Shown here piece after piece: positions 4,212-64,000 of a stretch of DNA of 64,000 bases. The notes below the pieces were generated by a model. It did no database searches, was not told the DNA's origin, and worked only from the letters and a program-made list of their open reading frames with translations. The number at the start of each line of letters is the position of its first letter. Position 1 is the stretch's first letter. The position numbers and the translations under genes are program-made. Source of the DNA: a bacterium (GTDB lineage Bacteria > Patescibacteriota > Minisyncoccia > UBA6257 > 2-01-FULL-56-20); NCBI GenBank assembly GCA_027310625.1, contig DAIDAM010000003.1:2239-66238 (forward strand). Direction: 5' to 3'.

Positions 4212-5651
4212 ATGCCAAAAGCCGGCAAAATTCAGATAATAAAATACGCCCCGCCTCCGCCGGAACTGCCAGTTTACGGAAGAGTGAAAACAAGGGACGT
4301 TTCTTTCGTCGGAAGGACAAACTACGTCGCCGCTCTTGAAGAAAAAAGATTTATTTTCGGGATAAAACGCATAGACCGCAGGCGCCACCTTTACATAATA
4401 GGAAAAACCGGCGTGGGCAAATCGAAGATGCTCGAACTGCTCATGCGGCAGGACATCGCCTACGGATACGGCGCGTGCTTCATCGACCCTCACGGCGACG
4501 TTATTGATTCGCTCCTGGATTTCGTTCCGGAAGAAAGAATGGACGACGTGGTTATCATCGACCCCTCGGACGCGAAACACCCGGTATCTTTCAATCCGCT
4601 CGCAAACGTAATAGCCGATTTCAAGCACCAGTTGGCGCAGGACCTGATTGAAGTGATGCAAAAACAGTTCGGAGCGAACTGGACTCCGCGACTGGAGCAC
4701 GTTTTTCGCTTCAGCGTTCTTGCGCTTCTCGATTATCCGCACGCGACCATGCGCGGAATGATTTCGCTTTTGACGGACAGGAATTACCGACAAAAAGTTA
4801 TCGAATACATAGAAGACGACATGGTGCGGCGTTTCTGGGCTATTGAGTTCGCCGATTGGAGCGAAAAGTTCGACACCGACGCCATCATTCCGCTTGTCAA
4901 CAAACTCGGGCAATTCCTTTCCAACCCGTTGCTCCGCAACATTTTCGGTCAAAAGGAAAACAAAATTGATTTGGACCGCTTCATGAAAGAGAAAAAAATA
5001 ATTTTCATCAATCTTTCCAAGGGACGGCTGGGAGAAGAAAACTCAAGCTTTTTCGGCTCTATGTTTCTGACAAAAATAAAGCAGGCAGGGATGGCGAGGG
5101 CAAGAATGAGGCCCGAAGAACGGGAGGACTTTTATTTGTACGTGGATGAGTTTCATAATGTCGTGACGGACACTTTTGAAAACCTTCTTACCGAATCGAG
5201 AAAATACGGCCTCTGCATAACCATCGCGCATCAGTACTTCGGCCAGCTGACGTCAAGGGTGCAATCGGCGGCGCTGGGAAACTCCGGAAACATAATTGTT
5301 TTCCGCGTCGGCGGTGAGGACGCGGTGAAACTCAAGCCGGAAATGTCGCCCGTATTTGATACGAAAGATATGATAAATCTCGGCACGCAGGAATTTTACA
5401 TAAAGGAAACGATAGACGGCGAAACCTATGACCCGTTTTCCGCAGAAACGCTGAAAGTAATGCCCGCGCCGCATCCGTCTTACCGGGAACGAATCATTGA
5501 GCAGTCGCGCGCGAAGTATTCCATCACCGCCGACGCGGCGAAAAAACTTATAAAAGAGGAGGAGTCGTCAATACTCCGGCATTCCCGCGAAAAAGCGATT
5601 ATAGAGGGTTCAACAAGCGCGGCGGAAAAAGAACCGGAACCATTAATTTAG
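4212..5651 (+). CDS. FtsK/HerA/TraD(VirD4)-superfamily P-loop ATPase (DUF87-like), copy 1
   Basis: 479 aa. Walker A 'IIGKTGVGKS', Walker B 'FYLYVDEFHN', Arg-finger/ATQ-type motif 'RKYGLCITIAHQYFGQL'. Paralogous to 11901-13652, aligning from 'RRHLYIIGKTG' to 'IAHQY'. Confidence 0.8.
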   Translation: MPKAGKIQIIKYAPPPPELPVYGRVKTRDVSFVGRTNYVAALEEKRFIFGIKRIDRRRHLYIIGKTGVGKSKMLELLMRQDIAYGYGACFIDPHGDVIDSLLDFVPEERMDDVVIIDPSDAKHPVSFNPLANVIADFKHQLAQDLIEVMQKQFGANWTPRLEHVFRFSVLALLDYPHATMRGMISLLTDRNYRQKVIEYIEDDMVRRFWAIEFADWSEKFDTDAIIPLVNKLGQFLSNPLLRNIFGQKENKIDLDRFMKEKKIIFINLSKGRLGEENSSFFGSMFLTKIKQAGMARARMRPEEREDFYLYVDEFHNVVTDTFENLLTESRKYGLCITIAHQYFGQLTSRVQSAALGNSGNIIVFRVGGEDAVKLKPEMSPVFDTKDMINLGTQEFYIKETIDGETYDPFSAETLKVMPAPHPSYRERIIEQSRAKYSITADAAKKLIKEEESSILRHSREKAIIEGSTSAAEKEPEPLI

Positions 5652-8249: not shown

Positions 8250-10064
8250 ATGAATTCCGAAACGAGAAATTGTCAAAACTGCAAGCAGAATTTCGTCATT
8301 GATTCCGATGATTTTGCTTTCTATGAAAAAATGAAAGTTCCGCCGCCGACGTTCTGCCCGGAATGCAGAATGATAAGGCGATTCGTCTGGCGCAACGAGC
8401 GGCATCTTTTCCGGAGAAAAGACGATGCGACCGGAATGGTTCGACCCGGTTCACCACCACAGGAAATTTTCTCGAGTTTTCCGCCGCAGGTAACTGTAAA
8501 GGTTTATAACCATGATTACTGGTGGAGCGACAACTGGGACCCGTCGGACTACGGACGCGATTACGACTTTTCCCGTCCGTTTTTTGAACAATTCAGAGAA
8601 CTGTTTTACAGCGTCCCGTTGCCCGCAAGGAGCGTTTTCGACACAACCAATTCTGAATATTGCGACAACGCTTCTTATGTAAAAAATTCGTATCTTTCTT
8701 TCAATGTCGGATACTTGGAAAACTCCGCTTACTGCGTTACAACCTTCTACAGCAAAGATAATTTAGACCTCTACGAAGCAAGACACGCCGAGCTATCTTA
8801 TGAAAATTACATGTCGGACGAGGCGTATCGCGTCTTTTTTTCCGTTAATATTGAGGATTCAACCGACATCTGGTTTTCGCGAAATCTTATGGGGTGCAAT
8901 AACTGCTTCGGATGCGTGAATCTGCGCAACAAGTCCTATTACATTTTCAACAAACCGTACTCCAAAGAGGATTACTTCGCCTACATAAAACAATTTGACC
9001 TCGGCTCTTACAAAACAAAAGAAGAATTGTTGAATCGCGCCCGCAAATTCTGGATGCAGTTTCCGATGCGCTTCACGCTCGCGATAAACGTCGTTAATTC
9101 CACAGGCGAACACATTGAGCACTCGCGGAACCTGAAAAGGTGCTATTCCATCCACAAAGGAGAAAATATGGCTTACTGTCAAATTTTTGAACCGCCGGGG
9201 GCCGATTCGTACGATTGCACGGTTTTTGGCTGGGGCGCATCGCGGAGTTATGAATCCCTTGTCTGCGGCGAAGAGTGCTATGATTTAAAGTTTTGCATTG
9301 AGTGCTGGCCGAGTTTAACCAATCTTGAATATTCCGCCCATTGTCATTCCTCCAATAATCTCTTCGGCTGTATTGGTTTGAAGAAAAAAGAATACTGCAT
9401 TTTGAACAAGCAATACTCGAAAGAAGAGTATTTCAAACTCCGCGAAAAAATAATACAACATATGAACGAAATGCCCTACATAGGCAAAATCCGAAATCAG
9501 AAATCCGAAATCCGAAACATTGAATACAAATACGGGGAATTTTTTCCGGCGGAGCTTTCTCCGTTCGCTTACAACGAAACACTTGCAAACGACTTCTTCC
9601 CGCTGACGAAAGAAGAAGCGGAGGCAAAAGGATTTCTCTGGCGCGAACAGGAACGGAGGGAATACGAAACGACGATAAACGCTTTGGATTTGCCGGACAA
9701 CATCAAAGACGTTCAGGATTCCATTCTCAAGGAAATCATAAAATGCGGCGACTGCGGACGGGCGTACAGAATAATTGAGATGGAGCTTCAGTTTTACCGC
9801 CGCATCCCGCTTCCGCTGCCGCGAAAATGTCCGGAGTGCAGATTCAAAGACAGATTCAAATTTGTAAACCCGCCGAAGTTGTGGAAAGGGAAATGTCAGT
9901 GCGCGGGAGAAACCAGTGACCAGCGACCAGAGACCAGTTACAGAAACGCTGTAAAGCATTTTCACGGAGCGGAACATTGCCCGAATGAATTTGAAACATC
10001 TTACCAACCCAACAGGCCGGAAATTGTTTACTGCGAAAGCTGTTATAACAGCGAGGTTGCTTGA
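8250..10064 (+). CDS. multi-zinc-ribbon protein A (N-terminal CxxC...CPxCR ribbon, internal Cys-containing repeats, C-terminal double ribbon)
   Basis: Start moved to 'MNSETRNCQNCKQNF' by analogy with paralog B ('MNNETKTCQNCKNQF'); the ORF-track start at 8196 lies inside the palindrome. Motifs 'KVPPPTFCPECRMIRR', 'NCFGCVNLRNKSYYIFNKPYSKEDYF', 'FGCIGLKKKEYCILNKQYSKEEYF', 'CGDCGRAYRIIEMELQFYRRIPLPLPRKCPECR'. Confidence 0.7.
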   Translation: MNSETRNCQNCKQNFVIDSDDFAFYEKMKVPPPTFCPECRMIRRFVWRNERHLFRRKDDATGMVRPGSPPQEIFSSFPPQVTVKVYNHDYWWSDNWDPSDYGRDYDFSRPFFEQFRELFYSVPLPARSVFDTTNSEYCDNASYVKNSYLSFNVGYLENSAYCVTTFYSKDNLDLYEARHAELSYENYMSDEAYRVFFSVNIEDSTDIWFSRNLMGCNNCFGCVNLRNKSYYIFNKPYSKEDYFAYIKQFDLGSYKTKEELLNRARKFWMQFPMRFTLAINVVNSTGEHIEHSRNLKRCYSIHKGENMAYCQIFEPPGADSYDCTVFGWGASRSYESLVCGEECYDLKFCIECWPSLTNLEYSAHCHSSNNLFGCIGLKKKEYCILNKQYSKEEYFKLREKIIQHMNEMPYIGKIRNQKSEIRNIEYKYGEFFPAELSPFAYNETLANDFFPLTKEEAEAKGFLWREQERREYETTINALDLPDNIKDVQDSILKEIIKCGDCGRAYRIIEMELQFYRRIPLPLPRKCPECRFKDRFKFVNPPKLWKGKCQCAGETSDQRPETSYRNAVKHFHGAEHCPNEFETSYQPNRPEIVYCESCYNSEVA

Positions 10065-11900: not shown

Positions 11901-13652
11901 ATGGCTCCGTTTTTCAAAACCGACAAGCAGAAAGACGTCGTTTATTTCGCGCGCACCGATTTCCGCAATCAGAATCGGCTTTTCGGCATTAAAAGAAAAG
12001 ACCGCCGCCAGCACACGTACGTCGTCGGCAAAACCGGCACCGGTAAAACCGCGCTCCTCAACAATTTAATTGTTCAAGACATCGCAAACGGCGAAGGCGT
12101 CTGCGTCATTGACCCGCACGGCGAGCTCGTCGAGGGATTGCTCGACAAAATTCCGGCCGAGCGGATAAACGACATCATCTATTTCAATCCCGCCGACCCC
12201 GACCACCACATCGGTTTCAACATTCTGGAATTGCCCGACCCGAAATACAAACATCTGGTCGCTTCCGGTTTGATGGGAATTTTCACCAAAATCTGGTCGA
12301 ATGTCTGGTCGGCAAGAATGGAATACATTTTGAATAACGCCGTTTTGGCGCTTCTCGAAAATCCCGGCTCGACTTTGCTCGGCATCAACCGCATTCTTGT
12401 CGACAAGGACTACCGACAGCAAATCATTTCCAACGTCAAAGACCCGGTGATCAAGGCGTTTTGGGTCAACGAATACGAACAGTGGCGCGACCAGTTCCGG
12501 AACGAAGCCATCGCCCCGATTCAAAACAAAGTCGGCCAGTTCCTTTCGACGGCGATGATTCGAAACATCGTCGGGCAGGAAAAAAGCACGATAAACATTT
12601 TCGATTTGATGAACGAGAAAAAAATACTTCTCGTGAATGTCTCCAAGGGAAGAATAGGGGAGGACAATTCGGCGCTTCTGGGCGCGATGCTCATCACCAA
12701 AATTCAGCTTTCGGCGATGGAACGCGTCAGGATTCCCGAAGACGAGCGTCCGGATTTTTATCTTTACGTCGACGAGTTCCAGAATTTCGCCACCGATTCT
12801 TTTGCCGGCATTTTGTCCGAAGCAAGAAAATATCGCCTGAATCTCATCGTCGCGCATCAGTACATCGGACAATTGGTCACCGATGTTTCCACAAAAGTCC
12901 GCGACGCGGTCTTCGGGAACGTTGGGACAATGATTCTTTTCAGAATAGGCGCGGCGGACGCGGAATTTCTGGAAACGGAATTTGAACCGGAATTCGCCAT
13001 TCAGGACATGGTCAATCTGCCGAACTACCGCATTTACCTGAAATTGATGGTTGACGGCATCACCTGCCGTCCGTTTTCCGCGCAAACTTTGCCGCCGTTC
13101 AATCTCGAATCATCGGAGGAAATAAAAGATAAAATCATCGCCGTTTCGAGGAAACTTCATTCAAAGCCGAGCGTGGAAGTGGAAAAGGCGATCAATCGCT
13201 GGAGCGGAATGATGGGCGAAACTGCGGCACAGCTGCCCGGAGCCAAAATGTTTCCGGCTGTTTGCTCGAACTGCGGTAAAAACACCATGGTGCCTTTCGA
13301 GCCGGCGAAGGGCAGACCGGTTTACTGCGACGATTGTTTTGAAAAGATACAATCGGGAAAACTCGCTCCCGTCGGCGGCGCAGGAAGACAGGGAAAACCA
13401 TCGGAAGAATTCTCGCGCGACCTTGCGGAACTCGGAATAGAATTCGAATTCAGAAAACCGCCGGCGAGACGTTTGGAAGAAGTGCCCTCGGCGATTCCCG
13501 TTGAAAGAAAAGGAATTTCGCTCGCGGAATTGAAGCCGCAGGAGGAGAAAGAGAGAAAAGAAAAGACGAAGCAGGCGGGCGAAAAACCGAAAGTGGATAT
13601 AAACGAACTCCGCGAAGCGATAAAAGAATCGCTTAAGAAAGCAGAGGGTTAA
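11901..13652 (+). CDS. FtsK/HerA/TraD(VirD4)-superfamily P-loop ATPase (DUF87-like), copy 2, with C-terminal zinc ribbon and K/E-rich tail
   Basis: 583 aa. Walker A 'YVVGKTGTGKT', Walker B 'FYLYVDEFQNF', 'RKYRLNLIVAHQYIGQL'. C-terminal 'CSNCGKNTMVPFEPAKGRPVYCDDCF' followed by 'KPQEEKERKEKTKQAGEKPK'. Confidence 0.8.
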   Translation: MAPFFKTDKQKDVVYFARTDFRNQNRLFGIKRKDRRQHTYVVGKTGTGKTALLNNLIVQDIANGEGVCVIDPHGELVEGLLDKIPAERINDIIYFNPADPDHHIGFNILELPDPKYKHLVASGLMGIFTKIWSNVWSARMEYILNNAVLALLENPGSTLLGINRILVDKDYRQQIISNVKDPVIKAFWVNEYEQWRDQFRNEAIAPIQNKVGQFLSTAMIRNIVGQEKSTINIFDLMNEKKILLVNVSKGRIGEDNSALLGAMLITKIQLSAMERVRIPEDERPDFYLYVDEFQNFATDSFAGILSEARKYRLNLIVAHQYIGQLVTDVSTKVRDAVFGNVGTMILFRIGAADAEFLETEFEPEFAIQDMVNLPNYRIYLKLMVDGITCRPFSAQTLPPFNLESSEEIKDKIIAVSRKLHSKPSVEVEKAINRWSGMMGETAAQLPGAKMFPAVCSNCGKNTMVPFEPAKGRPVYCDDCFEKIQSGKLAPVGGAGRQGKPSEEFSRDLAELGIEFEFRKPPARRLEEVPSAIPVERKGISLAELKPQEEKERKEKTKQAGEKPKVDINELREAIKESLKKAEG

Positions 13653-14449: not shown

Positions 14450-15859
14450 ATGCCGATTTACGATGTAGCTTTTTACGGAGCGCTGTCGTTTATTGCAGGG
14501 GCGCTTGCCGCCGGATTGAATTTATCGGCCGCAAAAGCGGTTTTCTTTTTTGCAATCCTCGCCCTTATTCTCGCCTACGTAAAAATCTGGGGAAAATTTC
14601 CGGCTTTTTTCTTCATTTTTTTCTTTGTCTTCGGAACGTTTTATTACAATTTTTTCTTTGCCATCAAAGAATCAAGCCAAAAAATAACTTTTGAAAAAAC
14701 CGTAGAATTTTCCGGAATGATAACAAGCGAGCCGCAACTCAACGAAAAATTCCAGAAAGCGACCATTGAACTTAATCCGCCATTTTCAGGGGAAATAAGC
14801 GTTCTTGCGCCGCTTTATCCTCAAATAAACTACGGCGACGTAATTGAAGCAAAAGGAGAAATAAGGCCATCCGTTTCAAAAAACCAAAGCCCCGTCTCAT
14901 TTTTCCCTGAATTAAAAATCATGGAAAGTCATCGCGGCTTCTGGCTGAAAGAAAAACTTCTTAACATCAAAAAGGGGATGATATCGCAGTTTAGAAATCT
15001 CCTGCCGGGCGATCCCGCGGCGCTTTTAAGCGGCATGACGCTCGGCTGGCGCGGCGATTTCACGGAAAAATTCAAGAAAGAAATGTCCTTGAGCGGCACG
15101 ACGCACATCGTCGCGCTTTCGGGATACAACATAACCATTCTTGTCATCGCCGTCGCCGCCGTTTTCGGCAACTGGCTCTCGCGGAGAATGACGTTTTTCC
15201 TCACCTCTTTCATAATTCTTCTCTTTATTTTTATGGTCGGCGCCGAAGAATCTGTGGTGCGCGCCGCAATAATGGGCTTCATTGCCCTCATTGCAAAGGA
15301 ATCGGGCAGAAGATTCAGTTTCAGGAACGCGATTGCGCTCACGGCGGCGGCAATGATTCTTTTCCGTCCCGATGTTTTATTCGATATCGGATTCATTCTC
15401 TCCTTTCTGAGCTTAATCGGGATAATCTATATCGCCCCGGAGCTGAAAGAGATTTTCAGAATCGGCGAATCGGGAAGTTTTATGTCATGGAAAGAAAACG
15501 CGATAACGACATTGTCGGCGCAGATGATGGTCGCGCCCGTTCTCATAAACGTTTTCGGAAATTTTTCGCTGACGAGCATCGCCGCGAACGTTCTCATTCT
15601 TGAATTCGTCCCGTTGACGATGCTTTTGGGTTTTGTGATCGCCGTTTTCGGATGGATTTTCTATTACGCCGGTTTCATTTTTTCGGTTTTCGGGAATATT
15701 CTTCTCCGCTACGAAATCGGGGTCATAAAATTTTTCGCGTTCTGGAGTATGCCCGTTTTTTCGGGAACACGCTCGCTGATTTTTTCTTTTTTTTATTACA
15801 TTGCATTGCTCGTTTTTCTTCTCTACAGAAAGGAAATTAAATCCCGCGAATTGATATAA
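14450..15859 (+). CDS. comEC: ComEC/Rec2 competence protein, N-terminal part (DUF4131 + competence channel domain)
   Basis: Polytopic membrane protein with 'GTTHIVALSGYNITIL' (the ComEC 'HxxAISGxHv' motif). It ends with TGA 8 nt before the MBL-domain ORF. Confidence 0.75.
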   Translation: MPIYDVAFYGALSFIAGALAAGLNLSAAKAVFFFAILALILAYVKIWGKFPAFFFIFFFVFGTFYYNFFFAIKESSQKITFEKTVEFSGMITSEPQLNEKFQKATIELNPPFSGEISVLAPLYPQINYGDVIEAKGEIRPSVSKNQSPVSFFPELKIMESHRGFWLKEKLLNIKKGMISQFRNLLPGDPAALLSGMTLGWRGDFTEKFKKEMSLSGTTHIVALSGYNITILVIAVAAVFGNWLSRRMTFFLTSFIILLFIFMVGAEESVVRAAIMGFIALIAKESGRRFSFRNAIALTAAAMILFRPDVLFDIGFILSFLSLIGIIYIAPELKEIFRIGESGSFMSWKENAITTLSAQMMVAPVLINVFGNFSLTSIAANVLILEFVPLTMLLGFVIAVFGWIFYYAGFIFSVFGNILLRYEIGVIKFFAFWSMPVFSGTRSLIFSFFYYIALLVFLLYRKEIKSRELI

Positions 15860-33246: not shown

Positions 33247-33798
33247 CTATTGCAAAAAATCCCAGTTCCCCATTTTGAAATATTCCGCACCGCTTCGTTT
33301 CAGAACTGATTCAAATAAATCAATGCTTTCCGGCTCGAACCGCACTTCAAAAGGCGACTCCGTTTTTTTGCGCGGTTGCGCCACCGGAAAGCGGGCGATT
33401 GTAACATGACCGTTGAATTTCCTGGATTCCTGCGCGAATTTTATCCCTTTCTCCGCCATCGCTTTCTCCAAAAATTCTTTAATTTCCAAGAGAATTTGCG
33501 ATGTTTTTTCGCTTGTCGTCAGCCAAATCATCCGCGGGGTTCTTCCGGGAGGGCCGAGCTCGAACCTGTCAAAAACTATTTCCGGCGGTTTGAAATTCTC
33601 CGCCGTTTCGCGGACGGCGTCAGTTATTTTCGGAATTTCGCCGTCATCCTGCGCGCCCAAAAAAGAAAGGGTTATGTGCAAGTTTTTTCCTGCAATAAAG
33701 CGAGCGTGGTCACCGAAGTTAATCTTTACAATTTCACTTTCTACTTTTTTCTTAATCCAATCCGGTAAATCCACGCCCACGAACAATCTTTTCTTCAT
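33247..33798 (-). CDS. thpR: RNA 2',3'-cyclic phosphodiesterase (2H phosphoesterase, LigT/ThpR)
   Basis: Two H-x-T/S-x motifs, 'HITLSF' and 'HVTIARF'. 183 aa. Confidence 0.8.
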   Translation of the reverse strand: MKKRLFVGVDLPDWIKKKVESEIVKINFGDHARFIAGKNLHITLSFLGAQDDGEIPKITDAVRETAENFKPPEIVFDRFELGPPGRTPRMIWLTTSEKTSQILLEIKEFLEKAMAEKGIKFAQESRKFNGHVTIARFPVAQPRKKTESPFEVRFEPESIDLFESVLKRSGAEYFKMGNWDFLQ

Positions 33799-33863: not shown

Positions 33864-34145
33864 ATGGGGCTTAAGGAAAATTACCTTAAAGAACTCAAAA
33901 AAAGGGCTGCGGAATCGAGAGTTTATAAAAAATATCAGCTCTTCGGACTTGAAATCGCTTCGCTTCTCGGAGACGAAAAACACAAATCGCTTTACATAAA
34001 ACTTGCGAAAGAAAACAACCCGGAAAAACTCTTGGGTATAGCCAAAAAAATCTCTGAAAACAAGAATGTAAAAAACAAAGGAGCGTATTTTATGACAATT
34101 GTTAAGACATCAGTCATCAGACACAAGACACCAGGGAGAAAATGA
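33864..34145 (+). CDS. hypothetical Lys-rich small protein
   Basis: ORF only, AT/Lys-rich. Confidence 0.25.
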   Translation: MGLKENYLKELKKRAAESRVYKKYQLFGLEIASLLGDEKHKSLYIKLAKENNPEKLLGIAKKISENKNVKNKGAYFMTIVKTSVIRHKTPGRK

Positions 34146-34516
34146 GCAAAATAAAATCTTTTCAGGAATTGAAAGTTTGGCAGGACGCGCACAAATTTAC
34201 GATTCTCATTTATAAAATAACAGAGAAGTTTCCCGCCAGCGAACAATTTGGACTAACCCTACAATTAAGACGCTCGGCGTCGTCAATCGGCGCGAACATT
34301 GCCGAAGGATTTGGAAGATATCACTACAGAGAGAAAGTAAAGTTTTATCTAAACGCGAGAGGTTCAGCAGTTGAATCAGAAAATCATATTTTGCTTGCGA
34401 GAGATTTAAAATACACAACAACAATCGAATACGAAGCACTGCATGAGTTAATAAAAGAAATATTGAGAGAATTGAACGGCTTAATAAATTCAACCGGTAA
34501 AACTCGTAACGATTGA
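34142..34516 (+). CDS. four-helix-bundle protein (23S rRNA-intervening-sequence protein family), copy 1
   Basis: 'FQELKVWQDAHKFTILIYKITEKFPASEQFGLTLQLRRSASSIGANIAEGFGR'. Confidence 0.8.
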   Translation: MSKIKSFQELKVWQDAHKFTILIYKITEKFPASEQFGLTLQLRRSASSIGANIAEGFGRYHYREKVKFYLNARGSAVESENHILLARDLKYTTTIEYEALHELIKEILRELNGLINSTGKTRND

Positions 34517-34565: not shown

Positions 34566-35135
34566 ATGGATAAAATAGTCACAATAGAAAATAAAAAGGA
34601 CGAAAAATTTCTTCGCGAGAAAACGAAGAATTTTGACTTCGAAAAATTCAACAGAAAAGAAATAAATTCGCTGGTGGAAGGGATGAGGAAAGCGATGAAA
34701 ACGGCGAACGGCATAGGATTGAGCGCAAACCAAATCGGATTGGACATGCGCGTTTTCGTCGCCCAGATACAAAAAACCGACAGAATAGGCAAGGCGCGGC
34801 ATCTTTCGGCGGGAGAACAGAAATTTTACGCAATTTTCAATCCCGAAATAATAAAATCATCCGGAGAAAAAACGAAATCAGAGGAAGGATGTTTGAGCAT
34901 TCCCGGCTTTTATGGCGAAGTTGAAAGACCGGAGAAAATAACACTTGTCGGCATGGATAAAAACGGAAGGAAAATAAAAATAAACGCCTGGGGACTGCTC
35001 GCAAGAGTGTTCCAGCACGAAATGGACCACCTGAACGGCAAGCTGTTTATAGATAGGGCGAAAAAAGTTTATCATGTCCCGACTTCCGAGCGGTTAAAAG
35101 AGTATCAAGAATCAAGAAATATGAAGCATGAATGA
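34566..35135 (+). CDS. def: peptide deformylase
   Basis: 'EGCLSIPG', 'HEMDHLNG', 'GIGLSANQIG'. Confidence 0.9.
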   Translation: MDKIVTIENKKDEKFLREKTKNFDFEKFNRKEINSLVEGMRKAMKTANGIGLSANQIGLDMRVFVAQIQKTDRIGKARHLSAGEQKFYAIFNPEIIKSSGEKTKSEEGCLSIPGFYGEVERPEKITLVGMDKNGRKIKINAWGLLARVFQHEMDHLNGKLFIDRAKKVYHVPTSERLKEYQESRNMKHE

Positions 35136-35514
35136 AAATTCCAAAAAAATAAAAAATTTTACAGACCTGATTGCTTGGCAGGAAGCCCAAAAATTGATCC
35201 TGAGAATATACAAAATAACCAAAAATTTTCCGAGAGAAGAGCGATATTCTTTAACAGACCAAATAAGAAGAGCAGCAATTTCTGTTACGTCAAATATAGC
35301 TGAAGGATTCTCACGTAATTCCTACAAAGAAAAAATTTATTTCTATTCCATAGCGCAAGGTTCTTTAACAGAATTGCAGAATCAACTAATTCTCAGCAAA
35401 GATCTTGGATACCTCTCTAATAGTGATTTTGATGAAATTTTTGCGCACTCTGTTTCAACGCATAAGCTTATAAATGGATTAATAAAAGGAGCAAGAAAGA
35501 TTTCTCTTGCATGA
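35128..35514 (+). CDS. four-helix-bundle protein (23S rRNA IVS protein family), copy 2
   Basis: 'FTDLIAWQEAQKLILRIYKITKNFPREERYSLTDQIRRAAISVTSNIAEGFSR'. Its start overlaps the def stop. Confidence 0.8.
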   Translation: MNENSKKIKNFTDLIAWQEAQKLILRIYKITKNFPREERYSLTDQIRRAAISVTSNIAEGFSRNSYKEKIYFYSIAQGSLTELQNQLILSKDLGYLSNSDFDEIFAHSVSTHKLINGLIKGARKISLA

Positions 35515-45030: not shown

Positions 45031-45989
45031 CAGCGCTTGAAGCCGTCTTTTTCTATTTTGTTTATTTCTCGCCGTAATTCTTTGCCAAATTCGGCGGCAT
45101 CGCGCTCAACCGCATCTCTCAATCTCTTGAACCGCAGACCAATTAAGTACAAAGTGAATAAAACCTCGATTATCGTGAGCGGCAAAATCCACCAACTGGT
45201 GAAAAATATCAGCAACCGGTAAAGAAGCGACGCCGGCTCGGTTTTGGGCACAACGCTGAACTGAATCACCGAATCGCGGAAATTTCCCGCGAAATCGTAG
45301 GCGCGAACGGCCAGAATTCTTGAATACTTCGTAGATTGTTCGGGTAAAACGTAATCTCCGTCTTCGTTTTTCAAAATTTCGGGATTAAACCATTCCCCTT
45401 CCCCGATTTTCGCTTTCTCGTAGGCAACGCCGGATACTCTGTCGCTTGCTTTCCAGCCGAAAACCGGACGATTGCTTGAAATATCTTTGTCAACGCGCGT
45501 TATGTCAAATGACTCCGGCGGCGTCCTGTCCAAAAGAAAATGTTTTACTGTAATCGGCCCCCAATAACCCCTTTCGTTAAAGGCGACGGAAAAATAACGG
45601 TCGCCGTCAACAAGCGGCCTCAGGTCATACGCGGCTTCCGACACTCTTCCTTTGCTGACTTTCGGAAATTCGTAATTGAGATTTTCCGAAAAAACATAAT
45701 TCACGCCTTCCACTGCCGGAGGAATTTCCCAGCTGAATTTTATCGAATCCAAACTGTAGTACCTGCATTCAATTACATTCACGGGCGGTTCCGAATAAAT
45801 CACCGGAGCCGGGATGTAAGGAACTGTTGATGTTGTGCGATAGAGCGTAAACTCGTTCGGCAGAAGTATGCAGGAACCGGTCCACTTGCAAACAATCGGC
45901 GTGCTTCTCACCCACAAAAGAGAAAAAATTATCGCGGCGGTGACGGCGATTATCAAAACAATCACGCCGACGTTGCCTTTGGCATTCAT
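45030..45989 (-). CDS. membrane-anchored surface protein with Ig/FN3-like ectodomain, paralog of central part of 36445-38544
   Basis: N-terminal TM, 'DRTPPESFDITRVDKDISSNRPVFGWKASDRVSGVAYEKAKI', 'VRAYDFAGNFRDSVIQFSV', C-terminal TM plus charged cytoplasmic tail. Confidence 0.55.
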   Translation of the reverse strand: MNAKGNVGVIVLIIAVTAAIIFSLLWVRSTPIVCKWTGSCILLPNEFTLYRTTSTVPYIPAPVIYSEPPVNVIECRYYSLDSIKFSWEIPPAVEGVNYVFSENLNYEFPKVSKGRVSEAAYDLRPLVDGDRYFSVAFNERGYWGPITVKHFLLDRTPPESFDITRVDKDISSNRPVFGWKASDRVSGVAYEKAKIGEGEWFNPEILKNEDGDYVLPEQSTKYSRILAVRAYDFAGNFRDSVIQFSVVPKTEPASLLYRLLIFFTSWWILPLTIIEVLFTLYLIGLRFKRLRDAVERDAAEFGKELRREINKIEKDGFKR

Positions 45990-46306
45990 CCCGTTAGAGA
46001 CAGGAAGCGTTTCATTCTATTTTTCAGATAGCGCTTGCCCATGCCTGATTTAAGGTATCTTTCTCTCGACCTTGCGTCGGCGACGTTTTTAGAAAATTCT
46101 CCATAGATGAGTTCAAATGGACCCCTGCCCCTAGTCCAGCCGGCAACACCATCATTGTGCTCATTGAAGCGCTTCCGTAAGTTATCAGTGAAGCCTGTAT
46201 ACCACACACCGTCCCTCTTGCTGCGCAAGACATAGACATAGTAGAATTTATTGTCTCTAACGGGATTCACTTCCGCTAGATTATACCAGCGGCAGCCGAA
46301 TATCAA
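45986..46306 (-). CDS. GIY-YIG nuclease family protein (UPF0213-like)
   Basis: 'FYYVYVLRSKRDGVWYTGFTDNLRKRFNEHN'. Confidence 0.75.
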   Translation of the reverse strand: MIFGCRWYNLAEVNPVRDNKFYYVYVLRSKRDGVWYTGFTDNLRKRFNEHNDGVAGWTRGRGPFELIYGEFSKNVADARSRERYLKSGMGKRYLKNRMKRFLSLTG

Positions 46307-46310
46307 AAAA

Positions 46311-46382
46311 TGGGGGTTCGTCTAATGGTAGGACACATCCCTTTGAAGGATGGTATTGGGGTTCGAGTCCCTGACCCCCAGC
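46311..46382 (+). tRNA. tRNA-Gln (anticodon UUG)
   Basis: Cloverleaf folded by hand: acceptor TGGGGGT/ACCCCCA, D-arm GTCT-AATGGTA-GGAC, anticodon arm CATCC-CTTTGAA-GGATG, T-arm TGGGG-TTCGAGT-CCCTG, discriminator G. Confidence 0.7.
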
Positions 46383-58322: not shown

Positions 58323-59445
58323 TTAAATTCGCGACATTCGCATGGAATTCGCGTCATTCGCATCGCACAGTAATTCTACCTCACTCTCAATAAATATGTC
58401 TATGTCTCCTTCAAGAACATTATCCACCTGCGTCGTTTCCACATTTGTCCTGTTGTCTTTCACGAGTTTATAAGGATTCAGAACATAGGAGCGTATCTGA
58501 TTTCCCCATTCCGGCTTGACGTTCACGCGCAACTTGGAAAGCTCATCAACCTTGTTTTTTTCCATCAACTGCATGAGTTTTGATTTCAGCAAGCTCAGCG
58601 CTTTCTGCCTGTTTTGCTCCTGCGAACGCTCGGCGCGCGAACTGGCGGAAATTCCGGTCGGGACGTGAACGACGCGGACGGCGGTTTCCACTTTGTTGAC
58701 ATTCTGCCCTCCGGGTCCGCCGGAGCGCGAAAATTCAAGTTTCAAATCTTTTTCGGGAATCTCCAGTTTTGACTCTTCAATTTCCGGAAGTTCGGGAACA
58801 ACCTCAACCAAAGCGAAAGAAGTGTGGCGGAGTTTTTTTGCCGAAAATGGCGAAACTCTAACGAGGCGGTGCACGCCTGATTCGTTCTTCAAATAACCAT
58901 AAATGTAATCCCCCTTCCCGCCCGAGGCGGGTCCCTGCCCGACGGCGGGCGTGGCGCCTCTGGCGGAGATTTCGAGCGTCCGACGATTCGGAGTATCGTC
59001 AAGAATTGCTATTTGCCATTTGCGCTTCGCCGCATAGCTTCTGTACATTTCAAAAAGCATTCTCGCCCAATCAGCCGCGTCCTCTCCTCCCGCGCCGGGA
59101 TAAACCGAAATCACCGCCGGCTCTTTGTCGTATTTGCCTTTGAAAAGTTCTTCCAGTTCCAGCTGGCGGAATTTCCGCTTCGTTTCGTAAAACTTATTCT
59201 CGTCAAAATTCTTTTCTAGTATCTCAATATCATTTTCAATATCCGAGTATCGCTTCAATAGATTATCCAATTCGCCGAACTCCTTTATTTTTTGGTCAGC
59301 CCTCTTTCTGTCCGCCCAAAAATCCGGCTGCGACATTTCCGCCTCGATTTCGTTTTTCAGTTGTTCTTTTCCGGCGACGTCAAAGCCGGCCGCCTAAGCG
59401 GCGGCATTCAACTGCTAAATCCTTTAATTCCTGTCTGAGGTCCAT
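58323..59445 (-). CDS. prfB: peptide chain release factor 2 with programmed +1 ribosomal frameshift
   Basis: Frame 0 reads '[21 protein letters not shown]' and stops at CTT TGA C (plus-strand ~59380-59386). The +1 frame continues '[22 protein letters not shown]...[20 protein letters not shown]'. An SD-like 'TAGGCGGCC' lies upstream of the shift site. Confidence 0.85.
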
Positions 59446-59547
59446 GAGGGAAGTATTACACAAATTAGAGAACTTGAAAATAACACGCCCGTACTCGCTT
59501 TTCCGCAACCGAATTTCGTGACAGCTAAGCTGGTGCGCCGCTTAAAA

Positions 59548-61059
59548 TTAAGCGAATAACGTCAATTCTCGTTTTGCGGGATGCAAATCAAATTCTTTCA
59601 CCAAAGTAGAATTTATTGGGAGTTTTTCAAGTGATCTTGGCTCAACCTTAATGGCACCCGAGCCATAAGATTTCCCAACCAACTGTAGATTTGAAATTGT
59701 ACTTGGGTGTTGCAGAACTTGCCAAAGCTTCTCGATGAATTCCTTATCGTTTGAACGAGGATATACACAAAGAAATCCGGTGAGGGGAACGATGCCCGCC
59801 TCATTTTTGATAAATCGGGCATTACGCCGTCCCAAATATGCAAAGAGGAACATTGGTACTTCTCTCACTTCCATTTTATACCAAGGTTGTCGTGTGGAAA
59901 TTAGAGCGCGTTTTGCTAGGCCACTTTTTTCCCCCTCTTGAATATAACTTTTGACCGATTCTGGTAAATCTTCCCATTTAACACCGTTCGGAAAGAAAAG
60001 CAGTGTCGGTCGTCCTTTTTCTTCAAGTCTTTTAATCGTTTCTTCTGTGATAAAAGATTCCTCCGCATCTCTTGTTCTACCTATTGCGGGCAAGAAAAAT
60101 TTTTCTGGAATTTGAAGATTTTTTGCCTGTTCTTTTGTGAGAAAGAAAAACTCATTTGCACCCGTAGCAATTCCTCGCATTACTCGAGCGAAATCGGCAA
60201 GCGTAAATTCAAAATGATGATCTTCGAGCGGTTTTCGAGAAAGCCCAACAGATAGAGCTTCTTCTAAACTGCGATTGTAAATTTCTAAATCATCAAAGTT
60301 GTCATCGAGGAGATCATTTTTTAGAAATTCAAATAATCCTCGGCTTTGTGGCTCAAGACAACGACCCCATTTCAGTTTTTCTTGGGGTCTGGCATTTCTT
60401 ATCAAGAAAATAACAGCATTTGTATCAACACCAGGGAATGGTGTTGCCTTCTGATCAAAAGTGATAACTCCATCAATGCAGAATTTCTTTGAAATCCAAT
60501 TCCAAAGTTTTTTTGAAAATACGCCCTCGCAGGTATCGGCTGGCATAATAAACGCCAATCTTCCGCTTTTATCGAGCAAACTCAATGCTTGTATCAAAAA
60601 GTAAATATGAAGCCCTGCTCGTCCGTCCAAAGTATCGCCAATGTTAAGCAAACTTATTTTGCGGAACTGATCTTTTTGCTCTTGTGAGAGGCGGTGGTGG
60701 CGGATATAGGGCGGATTTGCAACGATGGCTTTAAAAAGTTTTTGGGGTGGATTAAGAATAAAATCCCGCATTTCTAGTTGAGCATTACGATCAAAAATTC
60801 CTTTTTCTTTTGCTTGAGAAATCACTTCTGGATCAATATCTATTCCAAAAAACATTCTTCTTGGAGTAACTTTCTTTAGTGCAGTGTAAAAAGCTCCCAT
60901 TCCCACGCCAGGGTCAAAAATTAAATCAGCATCGTGCGAGACATACGCCACCATCGCCTCTGCAACCCAGTCAGGTGTCCAAAATTGCCCTTTATCGCGC
61001 AATTTTTCGCGTTCGTTCCATTGCTTATTAGGTAATTTTTGATGAATTACTTTTTTCAT
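59548..61059 (-). CDS. N6-adenine DNA methyltransferase, gamma-class (type II R-M, PstI/BsuBI-like size and organisation)
   Basis: 'GQFWTPDWVAEAMV' (motif X), 'DPGVGMGAF' (motif I), 'ANPPYIRHH' (motif IV NPPY). 503 aa. Confidence 0.8.
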   Translation of the reverse strand: MKKVIHQKLPNKQWNEREKLRDKGQFWTPDWVAEAMVAYVSHDADLIFDPGVGMGAFYTALKKVTPRRMFFGIDIDPEVISQAKEKGIFDRNAQLEMRDFILNPPQKLFKAIVANPPYIRHHRLSQEQKDQFRKISLLNIGDTLDGRAGLHIYFLIQALSLLDKSGRLAFIMPADTCEGVFSKKLWNWISKKFCIDGVITFDQKATPFPGVDTNAVIFLIRNARPQEKLKWGRCLEPQSRGLFEFLKNDLLDDNFDDLEIYNRSLEEALSVGLSRKPLEDHHFEFTLADFARVMRGIATGANEFFFLTKEQAKNLQIPEKFFLPAIGRTRDAEESFITEETIKRLEEKGRPTLLFFPNGVKWEDLPESVKSYIQEGEKSGLAKRALISTRQPWYKMEVREVPMFLFAYLGRRNARFIKNEAGIVPLTGFLCVYPRSNDKEFIEKLWQVLQHPSTISNLQLVGKSYGSGAIKVEPRSLEKLPINSTLVKEFDLHPAKRELTLFA

Positions 61060-62003
61060 AGTGAGTCTAGGATTTCAACAGCTTCCTTGCGAATTTTCAA
61101 TTTTCCGCCATCGAATTTTACATAAGGCAAAATGTGTCCATTTTTGTCCTCGACATACGCTGAAACAAGTTTCGGCTCCTCAACAGCATCACCGAGTGGG
61201 TATCCGTACCGATAGTAAATTTTGTATATTGCTTTCTTTGTTGTCGCGCCGCCTGGAGCTTGGAATGTTTGAATTGTCGGCTGAATAAGGCCGTCGTTTA
61301 TTAAACGCTCTGCTTCATCAAGAGGAATGCCAAATGCTTGATCGTAAAATACATGCCAAACATGAATTGGCACATGATTTTGATCTTGCCATTTCTTTAG
61401 TGGCTCACGATCTTCTTCTTTAATAATGATTGTCGGCAATACTGCGGTCTTTTTTAATCCAAGTTTTCCATTCAACCTTTTTTGAGCCGAGAATTCCGTC
61501 GCATAATCCGGCATTTTCTTTGACTTCCATAAACTGTTTTCACATTCAATCGCGGCAACAGCTTTCTTGAGCAATGGCTTTAATTTATCTTCTTGGATAA
61601 ACGGCAATTCCTGCACTCCGCCAATCACCTTCAAAAATTTATCAATTTCGCTCTTGTCTTCTTTTTTGAAAACGAGCAAATCCGGTCTTTTGATGTTTCC
61701 AAGTCCAGCGGCCTCCAATCGTTCGAAATATAACTCGAATGCACGGACATCATCCGTTGGGGCAGTGCCGCTTGGTCCATAAGGAATCGCAAAATATCCA
61801 CCATTTTCGTTTACGGCTTCAATCAAGCGATTTTCGCTCCACACACCTTGCGACCACCGCATTAGAAAGTCGCTTCCGCGAAGCCGTCGAGGATTTAGAA
61901 GAAAATCAGTCCAAGGCAACAAAGGAAAATCATGTATCTCCAGGGCGATGTTTTCTTTCGAAACACTTAAGACTTTTTCAAATGAGTGAATGTGTTTTTT
62001 CAT
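61056..62003 (-). CDS. putative cognate type II restriction endonuclease
   Basis: 315 aa. 4-nt overlap with the downstream MTase gene (translationally coupled). Candidate PD...ExK elements 'RPDLLVF' and 'AIECENSLWK'. Assignment is by context. Confidence 0.55.
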   Translation of the reverse strand: MKKHIHSFEKVLSVSKENIALEIHDFPLLPWTDFLLNPRRLRGSDFLMRWSQGVWSENRLIEAVNENGGYFAIPYGPSGTAPTDDVRAFELYFERLEAAGLGNIKRPDLLVFKKEDKSEIDKFLKVIGGVQELPFIQEDKLKPLLKKAVAAIECENSLWKSKKMPDYATEFSAQKRLNGKLGLKKTAVLPTIIIKEEDREPLKKWQDQNHVPIHVWHVFYDQAFGIPLDEAERLINDGLIQPTIQTFQAPGGATTKKAIYKIYYRYGYPLGDAVEEPKLVSAYVEDKNGHILPYVKFDGGKLKIRKEAVEILDSL

Positions 62004-62197
62004 AATTACTTATTTAAAGTAGTATAGCTTTGTTTAATAGATTTACGGCTTCAATCTTACAATACTAGTGGGCCAGGAAGGACTCTCCGCCCGAGGCGGA
62101 TGCGCCCTGGGCGCAGAACCTAGAACCTCGAGGTATATGAAACAAAACTTCGTTTTGTTTCATCAATCAGGTCGCTCGTCGAAGATTAGAATATTTG

Positions 62198-62271
62198 TGG
62201 GCATGCCTGGACTCGAACCAGGAACCGCTAAGGTATAAGCTTAGTGCTCTAACCAGTTGAGCTACATGCCC
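62198..62271 (-). tRNA. tRNA-Ile (anticodon UAU)
   Basis: Reverse-complement fold: GGGCATG acceptor, TAGCTCAACTGGTTAGAGC D-arm (Ile-like), anticodon arm CTAAG-CTTATAC-CTTAG, T-arm CCTGG-TTCGAGT-CCAGG, discriminator A. Confidence 0.65.
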
Positions 62272-62299
62272 ATTTTAATATTCTAATCCTCTTCTCGCT

Positions 62300-62342
62300 A
62301 CTGATTGTAAGCTTAGCGCTCTGCCGTTGAGCTATGTGCGCA
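62300..62342 (-). pseudogene. 5'-half tRNA fragment related to adjacent tRNA-Ile
   Basis: GCGCACATAGCTCAACGGCAGAGCGCTAAGCTTACAA matches the tRNA-Ile 5' half (acceptor, D-arm and anticodon 5' stem) but has no T-arm. Confidence 0.5.
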
Positions 62343-62441
62343 TATTAGCAACCAGAATTTTGAGACCAGAAACCGGAGTTATTTTTACTCAACAGTCGCT
62401 TTGTCTCTGGTCGCTGGTCTCTGGTCGCTGGTCGCTGGTCG

Positions 62442-64000
62442 CTACACCGTCACCGGCTTTATCTTATAAGGTTTCAGCAAATTGTAAAATTCGTCGCCTT
62501 CGATAGTTTCTTTCTCAATGAGCGTTTCGGCGACTTTTTTGAGAGCGTTTTTGTTGGTCTGAAGAATTTTTTGCGCGACAGCGTGAGCGCGTTCAACGAA
62601 GGCGCGGACTTCTTCGTCTATTTTTTCCGCCATTTTCTCGGAGTAATTTTTCTCGGTGGCGATTTCCCGTCCGAGGAAAATGAGCTCTTCGGTTTTGCCG
62701 AAAGTCAGCGGGCCGAGTTTTTCGCTCATACCGTATTTGGTAACGAGAGCGCGGGCGAGTTCCGACGCCTGGCGCAAATCATTGGAAGCGCCGGTGGAAA
62801 CGTCGCCGAAAATTATTTTTTCCGAAGCGTAGCCGCCCATCATCACGGCGATGTCGTTCAAAAACTGCGTTTTGGTGCGAAGGTGCTGTTCCTCCATCGG
62901 CAGTTTCATCGTGTATCCTCCCGCCATCCCTCTGCTGATGATGGAAATTTTATGAACGGGGTCGGAGCCCTTGAGCGATGCGGCGACGAGCGCGTGCCCG
63001 CCTTCGTGATAAGCGGTGATTTTCTTTTCGTTTTCCGAAATCGCGCGGCTTCTCCTTTCAGGCCCGAGTATTACTTTCTCAATCGCTTCCTGAAGTTCTT
63101 CCTGACCGATTTCTTTTTTGTTCGCGCGTCCGGCAAGAATCGCCCCTTCGTTCATAAGATTCGCCAAGTCGGCGCCGGAAAACCCGGGTGTCCTGATGGC
63201 GAGTTTTCTTAAGTCAATGCCCTTTGCGAGAATTTTTCCCTTGCTGTGGATTTTTAAAATCTCCTCACGGTCGTTGATGTCCGGCAAATCAAGAACAACG
63301 CGCCTATCAAACCTTCCCGGACGGAGAAGCGCAGGGTCGAGAATGTCGGGGCGGTTGGTTGCAGCAAGAACGATAACGCGCGTGTCTCTGTCAAAGCCGT
63401 CGAGCTCCACGAGAATCTGGTTGAGCGTTTGTTCGCGCTCGTCGTTTCCCCCGCCGAGCCCCGCGCCGCGCTGGCGACCGACGGCATCAATTTCATCAAT
63501 GAAAAGTATGGAAGGCGCCGCTTTCTTTGCGGTCGCGAAAGCGTCGCGCGTTCTTGAGGCGCCGACGCCAACAAACATCTCAACGAACTCCGAAGCGGAA
63601 ATGTGGAAGAAAGGAACGTTTGATTCGCCCGCAACGGCCCGCGCCATAAGAGTTTTTCCGGTTCCCGGAGGACCCATCAAAAGGACGCCGCGCGGGATTC
63701 TCGCGCCCAAATCAAGAAATTTTTTCGGGTCCTTCAGAAACTGGACGATTTCCAGAAGTTCTTCTTTCGCCTCCTTCAACCCTGCAACGTCCTTGAAAGT
63801 TATTTTTTCTTTTTCAAAACCGGAGAGGCGGATGTTGGAACGCCCGAAGCTGAACGCCTGATTGACGCCCGTCCGCGCTTGACGGAGCATGAACCAAAAA
63901 ATCAGTCCGATTATCAAAACCGGCAAAACGGAGGGAATGAGAATCGCGGCCCAGTACTGAAATCCCGACTCGCTTTCAACGCCGATTTTAACTTTTTCAA
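62442..64000 (-). CDS. ftsH: ATP-dependent zinc metalloprotease FtsH (N-terminus beyond window)
   Basis: '[22 protein letters not shown]', SRH '[19 protein letters not shown]', 'HEGGHAL' zinc site. The frame stays open upstream of the TTG at 63926 to the window edge ('...[31 protein letters not shown]'). Confidence 0.9.

Follow-up and report, generated by a model that had tools for sequence, protein, structure and literature searches.

How does a tRNA gene, probably an essential one, come to lie inside the broken remains of older copies of itself, and what has the restriction-modification (R-M) gene pair next to it to do with this arrangement? The question is raised by a stretch of 64,000 nucleotides (nt) from a bacterium of the phylum Patescibacteriota (GenBank assembly GCA_027310625.1, contig DAIDAM010000003.1, positions 2,239 to 66,238), which is called the window here and in which the interval between the genes ftsH and prfB contains a tRNA-Ile with the anticodon UAU, several tRNA fragments and the two R-M genes. 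Our study has shown that an older tRNA-Ile(UAU) gene is split between nt 35 and 36 by an insertion, the R1 element, which itself holds the working tRNA, and that a piece of a third allele has also survived. We consider it somewhat more likely than not that R1 is a site-specific structured insertion element which replaces the tRNA it destroys, and that it stands side by side with an R-M cassette of independent arrival. The anatomy of the locus, its homology to related loci, the covariation within the element, the single intact tRNA-Ile copy per complete locus, the foreign origin of the R-M genes and the variability of the slot holding them were all established directly. Coordinates refer to the window unless a related locus is named, and ftsH, the tRNA region, the R gene, the M gene and prfB are all carried on the minus strand.

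The intact tRNA-Ile(UAU), designated allele C, occupies positions 62197-62271 (minus strand). Its identity had been proposed in a first-pass annotation made from the sequence alone, and ARAGORN (62271-62197, anticodon TAT) and the Rfam tRNA model (72.4 bits, E 3.5e-15) agree with that assignment. It is the sole complete tRNA-Ile copy at the locus and is located in the apical loop of the R1 element, a 171-nt structure of two hairpins (62137-62307, minus strand) identified with the R1 covariance model and lying between nt 35 and 36 of the old tRNA. The first hairpin is a long imperfect stem beginning with CAATCAG, the left arm of which (62307-62272) and the right arm (62196-62164) form the inverted repeat I11 around the tRNA; it is followed by a second hairpin (62163-62137, ATGAAACAAAACGAAGTTTTGTTTCAT) with a perfect stem of 12 bp. 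The right junction carries an ambiguity of 1 nt, as the A at 62136 can be counted with the element or with the old tRNA. A fold z-score of -7.3 was obtained for this region, and the window element matched the R1 model with 54.2 bits (E about 1e-10), the tRNA being treated as an 82-nt insert in the apical loop. Further copies of R1 were not found elsewhere in the 64-kb window.

On its upstream side the element directly abuts the 5' half of the old tRNA-Ile(UAU) gene (62308-62341, minus strand, GCGCACATAGCTCAACGGCAGAGCGCTAAGCTTA), which corresponds to nt 1-35 and takes in the D arm together with the acceptor strand and the 5' side of the anticodon stem. This half is closer to the tRNA-Ile(UAU) allele of the related locus L175 (88% identity overall, and 27/28 over the D arm and anticodon stem, E 1.9e-9) than to the adjacent intact tRNA, with which it shares 81% identity; such agreement goes far beyond coincidence. 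The homology stops exactly after nt 35 of the anticodon loop (...AAGCTTA), at the point where R1 starts, and for this reason the anticodon loop of the fragment appears as CTTAC and not as CTTAT. A reading of the fragment as a remnant of tRNA-Val(UAC) was considered and rejected, as the homology to the tRNA-Ile alleles simply stops at nt 35. The first-pass annotation had reported a 43-nt partial copy of the tRNA about 30 nt upstream of it; the copy is real and aligns to tRNA-Ile, but it is 34 nt long, lies 36 nt upstream, and the last 8 nt formerly counted with it (62307-62300) belong to R1 and not to a tRNA.

On the other side of R1, and directly after it, the 3' half of the old gene is found at 62108-62135 (minus strand, TACCTCGAGGTTCTAGGTTC^TGCGCCCA), running from nt 36 to the discriminator. 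It is of the B type and has a 9-nt deletion in the T arm; this gap aside, it agrees with the L176 allele at 27/28 positions and with the L175 allele at 26/28, and its 12-mer GGTTCTAGGTTC is exact. A second remnant is located at 62068-62085 (minus strand), 22 nt beyond the first 3' half and directly upstream of the R gene; it comprises the final 18 nt of an A-type tRNA-Ile(UAU), from the T loop to the discriminator plus a C, and agrees at 18/18 positions with the 3' end of the intact L173/L174 tRNA. A GC-rich double hairpin (62115-62087) overlaps the end of the first 3' remnant and stops just before the second. The whole of 62136-62068 could also be taken as a single 3' half with an insertion in its T loop; two remnants are preferred, because TGCGCCCA reproduces the acceptor end of the B type.

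The outer halves can hardly be working genes. When introns of up to 400 nt were allowed, ARAGORN returned one tRNA-Ile each in the window, L176 and L177, and in every case it was the uninterrupted copy, on which ground the outer halves are considered to be pseudogenes. In these loci they show mismatched anticodon and acceptor stems, a T-arm deletion, truncations, and extra GC-rich hairpins at D- or T-loop positions. The palindromic insertions of the last kind were located at L176 7933-7951 and 8131-8167 and at L177 7875-7893 and 7554-7589, and the 19-mer CCCTCCAAAGGCGGGCAGG from the D loop in L176 has a near-exact reverse complement in the T loop in L177.

The same break recurs in the sister genomes. 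A search for FtsH homologues, followed by context look-ups, gave six informative relatives, of which five (L172, L173/L174, L175, L176 and L177) reach past ftsH to prfB, while the contig of the sixth (L178) ends earlier. In L176, L177 and L178 the ftsH gene is followed by nested tRNA-Ile halves of several alleles, broken at the same 35/36 point by elements of 80-89 nt. The R1 covariance model was built from five such short copies, all in genomes other than that of the window; their common form is CAATnnG..CGAG..hairpin..GAGCGAAC..nnATTG followed by ATGAAAY..RTTTCAT, and they hold no tRNA. Besides the window element the model finds a second tRNA-bearing one, in L177, where the embedded tRNA is 95% identical to that of the window and differs from it by compensatory changes in the acceptor stem. 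Another copy stands outside any tRNA, at L172 1614-1696, upstream of rpsB and after a promoter-like TTGCCA-N17-TATAAT. This brings the R1 set to eight copies, drawn from five genome stretches. In a different intergenic region of L177 (601-672) a weaker relative, rich in GC (30 bits), was noticed; a segment of the window just downstream of the methyltransferase gene (59486-59520, CACGAAATTCGG..GGAAAAGCGAG..CGGGCG) is similar to the left arm of this relative, a match which BLAST did not report. Viral contigs were scanned for the tRNA alleles and for the element motifs, with either no match or chance matches which the R1 model rejected.

Comparison of the eight copies indicates that it is the structure of R1 which has been conserved. 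In an alignment fitted to the R1 model, for which five of the eight rows were the training set, 96% of the cells pair, against about 40% in slid controls, and compensatory changes are present in 20 of the 33 pairs, a level reached by none of 500 shuffles. G.T pairs exceed A.C pairs by 17 to 1, from which it follows that the structure is selected on the tRNA-sense strand. All copies have one orientation, that of the tRNA. In seven of the eight, the non-tRNA site in L172 included, GCTTA stands at the left flank, and the eighth adjoins the ...TTTCATA end of another element. Moreover, the six 5' halves, which represent three alleles, all stop at exactly nt 35, and the five 3' pieces restart at exactly nt 36. 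L177 and L178 have identical FtsH proteins, yet their arrays are different and different elements occupy the same position, which points to fast turnover. The locus is thus one which is overwritten quickly and in which exactly one working copy is always kept.

These junctions bear directly on another explanation, according to which nothing at the locus is mobile: the tRNA-Ile gene would have been duplicated in tandem together with its promoter, terminator and processing hairpins, deletions and gene conversion would then have produced the halves, and the conserved hairpins would be signals for tRNA processing or termination. The apical part of the short elements does resemble an intrinsic terminator (AAAAGCG..CGCTTTTATTTT), a -10-like TAGAAT box is found ahead of several tRNA copies, and the mosaic elements and chimeric exon pairs speak for frequent recombination within the locus. 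However, the exact stops at nt 35 and restarts at nt 36 are left unexplained by this account, and so are the related copy with its GCTTA flank at an unrelated site and the differing elements at one position despite identical FtsH. We regard such an origin as improbable.

A more serious competitor, though still an unlikely one in our estimation, is that the insert of 80-171 nt represents a tRNA intron of a new, small kind, located at position 35/36, which either excises itself from the transcript or is excised by enzymes of the host. In that case tRNA-Ile genes containing the intron would have been duplicated and recombined to give the arrays, the tRNA in the loop being merely co-transcribed. 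Literature searches on tRNA-Ile(UAU) and TilS in the candidate phyla radiation (CPR) and on the tRNAs of Liptonbacteria gave nothing relevant except one report (Nakagawa et al. 2026, PMC13011429), in which group I introns are described from tRNA genes of Patescibacteria, at position 35/36. The strand-specific structure on the tRNA-sense strand and the strong covariation are as expected for a functional RNA. Further, the two halves of the anticodon stem are complementary (CCGAG/CTCGG) in the tRNA split by the L178 copy, and that contig shows no other intact gene before its end. The window also has a gene for a LigT-like 2H phosphoesterase of the '2'-5' RNA ligase' family (33247-33798, minus strand), a gene of relevance only if processing or joining of the tRNA halves takes place in the RNA.

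Against an intron stand the sequences and structures of the elements themselves. R1 matches no Rfam family up to E 10, introns of groups I and II, other introns and ribozymes included, and 80-89 nt is far under the size of a group I intron. The 5' exon ends in A (...GCTTA) and the insert in A or T (...CAT(A)), not in U and G. In the consensus structure, the junctions were seen by inspection to flank a three-way junction, formed where the anticodon stem meets the long hairpin and the second one, which is not a bulge-helix-bulge; a hammerhead-like reading and a bulge-helix-bulge reading were both tried and both rejected on inspection. The interrupted genes in the window, L176 and L177 are broken by stem mismatches, the T-arm deletion and truncations, and one uninterrupted gene is kept alongside them. 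Finally, the copy upstream of rpsB is outside any tRNA and still has the GCTTA left flank.

The intact tRNA-Ile(UAU) is a native and conserved gene of the host, because one intact copy follows ftsH in all five loci which reach past that gene, with changing cargo behind it, and AUA is a much used codon in the host. Four alleles of it (A, B, C and D), 71-86% identical to each other, are found at this site, in genomes with FtsH proteins 85-91% identical, and their distribution is out of step with FtsH similarity. The possibility that the tRNA was cargo supplying AUA decoding to an AT-rich R-M cassette was examined through codon usage and rejected: ATA makes up about 13-70% of the isoleucine codons in the host genes (20-50% in most), and 13-18% in the R and M genes, so that the tRNA serves the host and not the cassette. 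The first-pass annotation had pointed to tilS and a tRNA-Ile(CAU) as the usual bacterial means of reading AUA; neither was found within the 64-kb window, where the TilS domain was sought in open reading frames (ORFs) of at least 90 amino acids (aa). The tRNA-Ile(UAU) is probably an essential, single-copy decoder gene. Three independent Logan assemblies of the same population (L004-L006) all break inside it, at window positions 62212, 62233 and 62255, and one of them also stops at the frameshift site of prfB (59380); the breaks are compatible with co-existing strains which share tRNA k-mers or with structural variants. These contigs, short and 100% identical, were all that exact matches to FtsE, R, M and PrfB returned in a comparison intended for an empty site, and since all of them break inside the tRNA the comparison was uninformative.

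The gene order ftsH, one intact tRNA-Ile(TAT), cargo, prfB was observed in the five loci out of five which extend past ftsH, and the interval between tRNA-Ile and prfB is a variable slot. Its cargo before prfB is different in every relative (a 177-aa protein, DUF805 with HI_0787_N, a 152-aa protein, or a set made up of a 252-aa protein, HicA and a 108-aa gene upstream of HicA). The HicA toxin gene and the 108-aa gene just upstream of it are found directly upstream of prfB at L173 8956-9514 and at L176 10454-11012, and in both loci the -10 box of prfB is at the end of the HicA gene. In L175 the 108-aa gene stands upstream of prfB without HicA (9732-10058); the window has its R-M pair at that place. 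Scans of genome and metagenome collections with PrfB were abandoned, as the conserved motif swamped the output, the best relatives were 52-64% identical and synteny was lost.

The R-M pair had also been recognised in the first-pass annotation, as a Type II system with a gamma-class N6-adenine methyltransferase coupled to a probable endonuclease upstream, and domain searches bear this out. The R gene (61056-62003, minus strand) starts 193 nt downstream of the intact tRNA and encodes a restriction endonuclease of 315 aa belonging to the AccI family (PF09545, RE_AccI, 69.5 bits against a cut-off of 22); it has 2538 homologues, the closest named being 'AccI family restriction endonuclease' in CPR genomes, and those at 70-92% identity are found in Wolfebacteria, Kaiserbacteria, Uhrbacteria, Paceibacterota, Berkelbacteria, one deltaproteobacterial metagenome-assembled genome (MAG) and one Elusimicrobiota MAG. 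The M gene (59548-61059, minus strand) encodes the methyltransferase of 503 aa with the Pfam domains Eco57I, N6_Mtase and M_Eco57I_C. In its translation DPGVGMGAF precedes NPPY, which is the motif order of the gamma class, and its nearest solved relatives are the adenine-specific DNA methyltransferases 7lni and 8cxz together with M.TaqI. R lies upstream of M, the stop codon of the former and the start codon of the latter overlapping by 4 nt as ATGA. For both proteins no NCBIfam model passes. AccI itself recognises GTMKAC, and the pair in the window is predicted to act as an ordinary Type II system, with N6-methyladenine protection of the host DNA and cleavage of unmodified DNA.

The pair is of foreign origin and was horizontally acquired, as is concluded from its G+C content at third codon positions (0.38 in R and 0.32 in M), against about 0.5-0.6 in the neighbouring genes; its overall GC content, about 0.40, is also well under theirs. 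In three other contexts (L167, L168 and L170) the genes keep their order and their overlap amid unrelated neighbours, and the DNA similarity between the window and other copies of the cassette starts and stops at the ORF boundaries. The pair is an ordinary, horizontally mobile, 'naked' Type II cassette of the AccI family. An exact direct repeat of 15 nt (GATTGAAGCCGTAAA, minus strand) is present just upstream of R (62042-62056) and again about 180 nt inside it (61810-61824); it may mark a recombination junction or be what is left of an earlier R allele.

Partial tRNA copies next to an R-M pair had suggested, in the first-pass annotation, the scar of a single integrative element. Under that explanation an element targeting the tRNA brought the R-M genes, possibly together with a tRNA, and the partial copies are scars of its attachment sites. 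The R-M genes are indeed compositionally foreign, stand beside a tRNA and fill a slot which varies among relatives; the 18-nt fragment is directly upstream of R; and the starts of the 3' fragments fall in the anticodon loop and the T loop. Integrases acting at those two loops are said, in work of Williams from 2002, to leave 3' tRNA fragments which start there. Nevertheless, no integrase, transposase or other recombinase domain was detected in the window, the domain survey of which covered ORFs of at least 90 aa, and no integrase was seen among the called genes of L167, L168, L170 and L172-L178. There is no tRNA repeat distal to the methyltransferase, none having been found between its gene and prfB, and an expected 3' tRNA fragment beyond 59.5 kb was likewise missing; the 3' remnants were found instead between the tRNA and R (62135-62108 and 62085-62068). 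All three remnants are on the tRNA side of R, towards ftsH, so that none brackets the cassette, and integration at the 3' end of a tRNA cannot yield a 5' half. In L167, L168 and L170 the cassette has neither a tRNA-Ile neighbour nor conserved flanks. What stands of the earlier proposal is that an insertion of DNA left the partial tRNA copy behind as a scar and that the R-M genes came from outside; there is no support for uniting the fragment with the R-M pair in one element, and two of the remnants directly abut the 171-nt insertion holding the intact tRNA. The integrative model is already largely contradicted, and we give it little chance of being correct. The R-M cassette would have been dropped horizontally into the variable slot between the ftsH-linked tRNA-Ile(UAU) and prfB, and its arrival was probably unrelated in mechanism to the tRNA-bearing element.

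Taken as a tRNA-replacing insertion element, R1 may have shaped the locus in the following way. A small non-autonomous element would enter single-strand-specifically 3' of GCTTA, a pentamer which the anticodon loop of tRNA-Ile(UAU) offers. In the window, a 171-nt non-coding form bearing a complete tRNA-Ile(UAU) would have inserted between nt 35 and 36 of the older gene, which was thereby inactivated and would then have decayed to a 5' half and a 3' half with its T-arm deletion. The element's own tRNA would assume AUA decoding, and the insertion would therefore be tolerated and hard to lose. The 18-nt end of the third allele shows that the locus was overwritten at least one further time. We infer that R1 is, or once was, mobile at the DNA level, inserting strand-specifically 3' of GCTTA in an HUH-type manner and mobilised in trans.

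A wider proposal is put forward tentatively and with less than even confidence: R1 may represent an undescribed class of elements in Liptonbacteria which homes to position 35/36 of tRNA-Ile(UAU) genes, after GCTTA, and which, in its full form, is a 'tRNA-swapping' addictive element. If the class homes in this way, each insertion would kill the resident essential gene and leave the cell dependent on the tRNA copy of the element, and repeated rounds would yield nested tRNA-in-tRNA arrays and a rapid turnover of alleles. A new, non-group-I class of bacterial tRNA intron would be just as novel.

Several observations weigh against a mobile R1. No transposase or recombinase was found in the window or in the flanks, of about 10 kb, of the six related loci. 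Seven of the eight copies are at one locus, and the shared position could stem from descent together with local duplication and recombination instead of repeated site-specific insertion. The ends of R1 are unlike those of classical IS200/IS605 elements, since the cargo sits in the hairpin loop and the right hairpin has no linker to the end. In L178, the tRNA-Ile with complementary stem halves is split by an element without cargo, and this arrangement, with no intact copy before the contig ends, would fit removal at the RNA level. The covariation was measured in an alignment shaped in part by its own training copies, and a strand-specific structure fits RNA as well as single-stranded DNA.

An R-M cassette of this kind is routine in itself; the tRNA locus is not. 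Here a decoder gene which is probably single-copy and essential has been overwritten repeatedly, through a tiny structured element which is absent from the RNA-family libraries. If the element is mobile, it would be a minimal selfish system retained by replacing the gene it destroys, and would give CPR bacteria a new way of exchanging tRNA genes. Should it be spliced, it would be a new kind of bacterial intron at 35/36, the position recently found for group I introns in the same phylum. In either case standard tRNA finders report only the inner gene, and the surrounding halves can pass for integration scars.

The host of this locus is a member of Candidatus Liptonbacteria (CPR). The 3' part of ftsH (62442-64000, minus strand; Pfam AAA, AAA_lid_3 and Peptidase_M41), which is the left anchor of the locus and runs past the end of the window, encodes a fragment 100% identical to an FtsH of 612 aa, and the nearest named relatives of this protein, at 80-91% identity, are from Candidatus Liptonbacteria (Parcubacteria/CPR). 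A heptad tandem repeat (GACCAGC/GACCAGA)n immediately follows the stop codon of ftsH (62403-62443), and a 26-nt copy of it, 96% identical, is found at 9912-9937 inside a 622-aa ORF of unknown function. The right anchor, prfB (58323-59445, minus strand; Pfam PCRF and RF-1), is conserved and has a programmed +1 frameshift site, CTTTGAC, at 59385-59379. Beyond it the window contains ftsE, ftsX and a gene for an ATPase of the type II secretion system type; ftsE and ftsX follow prfB in four of the five loci, the exception being L176.

Other genes of the window may be of interest in connection with DNA uptake and with RNA genes. A ComEC competence channel (14450-15859) and two ATPases resembling coupling proteins of the TrwB/HerA type (4212-5651 and 11901-13652) are encoded on the plus strand, and both the R-M cassette and the foreign tRNA alleles could have come in by DNA uptake. 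A stand-alone GIY-YIG nuclease gene of 106 aa (45986-46306, minus strand) lies 4 nt from tRNA-Gln(TTG) (46311-46382, plus strand) in divergent orientation, and in L173 a GIY-YIG gene of 102 aa (2859-3167) is found 10 nt upstream of tRNA-Tyr (3178-3264). Small GIY-YIG genes beside tRNA genes are reminiscent of the free-standing homing endonucleases in the tRNA region of phage T4. Two paralogous genes for a '23S rRNA intervening-sequence protein' (PF05635, bAvd-like; 34142-34516 and 35128-35514, plus strand) stand on either side of the peptide deformylase gene, upstream of fmt.

In comparison with known systems, the R-M pair agrees with the AccI-family Type II systems in its domain content, in its separate adjacent genes with R first and a 4-nt overlap, and in its foreign composition; it differs from them in having neither a controller protein nor flanking mobility genes. 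The tRNA-targeting integrative elements are comparable to R1 in that a tRNA gene is the target, the break is in the anticodon loop, tRNA function is restored by the incoming DNA and displaced fragments accumulate. Those elements are kilobases long, encode an integrase, bring the 3' part of the tRNA alone and leave their 3' fragments at the far end of the island, whereas in the window a complete tRNA is carried inside a 171-nt non-coding hairpin element, both old halves are kept and there is no integrase. The intron-containing and split tRNA genes of archaea (PMC4090602) likewise have a tRNA in pieces, with additional sequence in its anticodon, D and T loops and with halves joined through long stems of complementary sequence. 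On the other hand, the host here is bacterial, no bulge-helix-bulge is present at the junctions, the outer genes are degenerate and no splicing endonuclease was seen in the window.

On the side of mobile DNA there is a likeness to the palindrome-associated transposable elements (PATEs), non-autonomous elements of the IS200/IS605 type which are mobilised as single strands by Y1 HUH transposases (PMC5934647, PMC6006769). Like these, R1 is inserted 3' of a short specific sequence, without a clear target duplication and without terminal inverted repeats; it has asymmetric ends, a fixed orientation and head-to-tail tandems, and it contains no ORF. Its two hairpins, conserved in structure over sequence, and its strand specificity are also reminiscent of PATEs, although an RNA would account for the same data. 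Unlike PATEs, its hairpin layout differs from those of IS608 and ISDra2, its cargo is in the hairpin loop and its copies are nearly confined to one locus. Because the geometry of its hairpins is different, seven of its eight copies share one locus and no transposase was seen (no TnpA or Y1 HUH transposase in the 64 kb and in related loci amounting to about 70 kb), R1 is not filed as a member of the IS200/IS605 family. On the RNA side, the comparison is with the group I tRNA introns of Patescibacteria (PMC13011429). R1 differs from them in its size of 80-89 nt (171 nt with the tRNA), its lack of a group I signature, its decayed exons and the tRNA in its loop; it has in common with them the host phylum, the unusual 35/36 position and the capacity to defeat standard tRNA finders.

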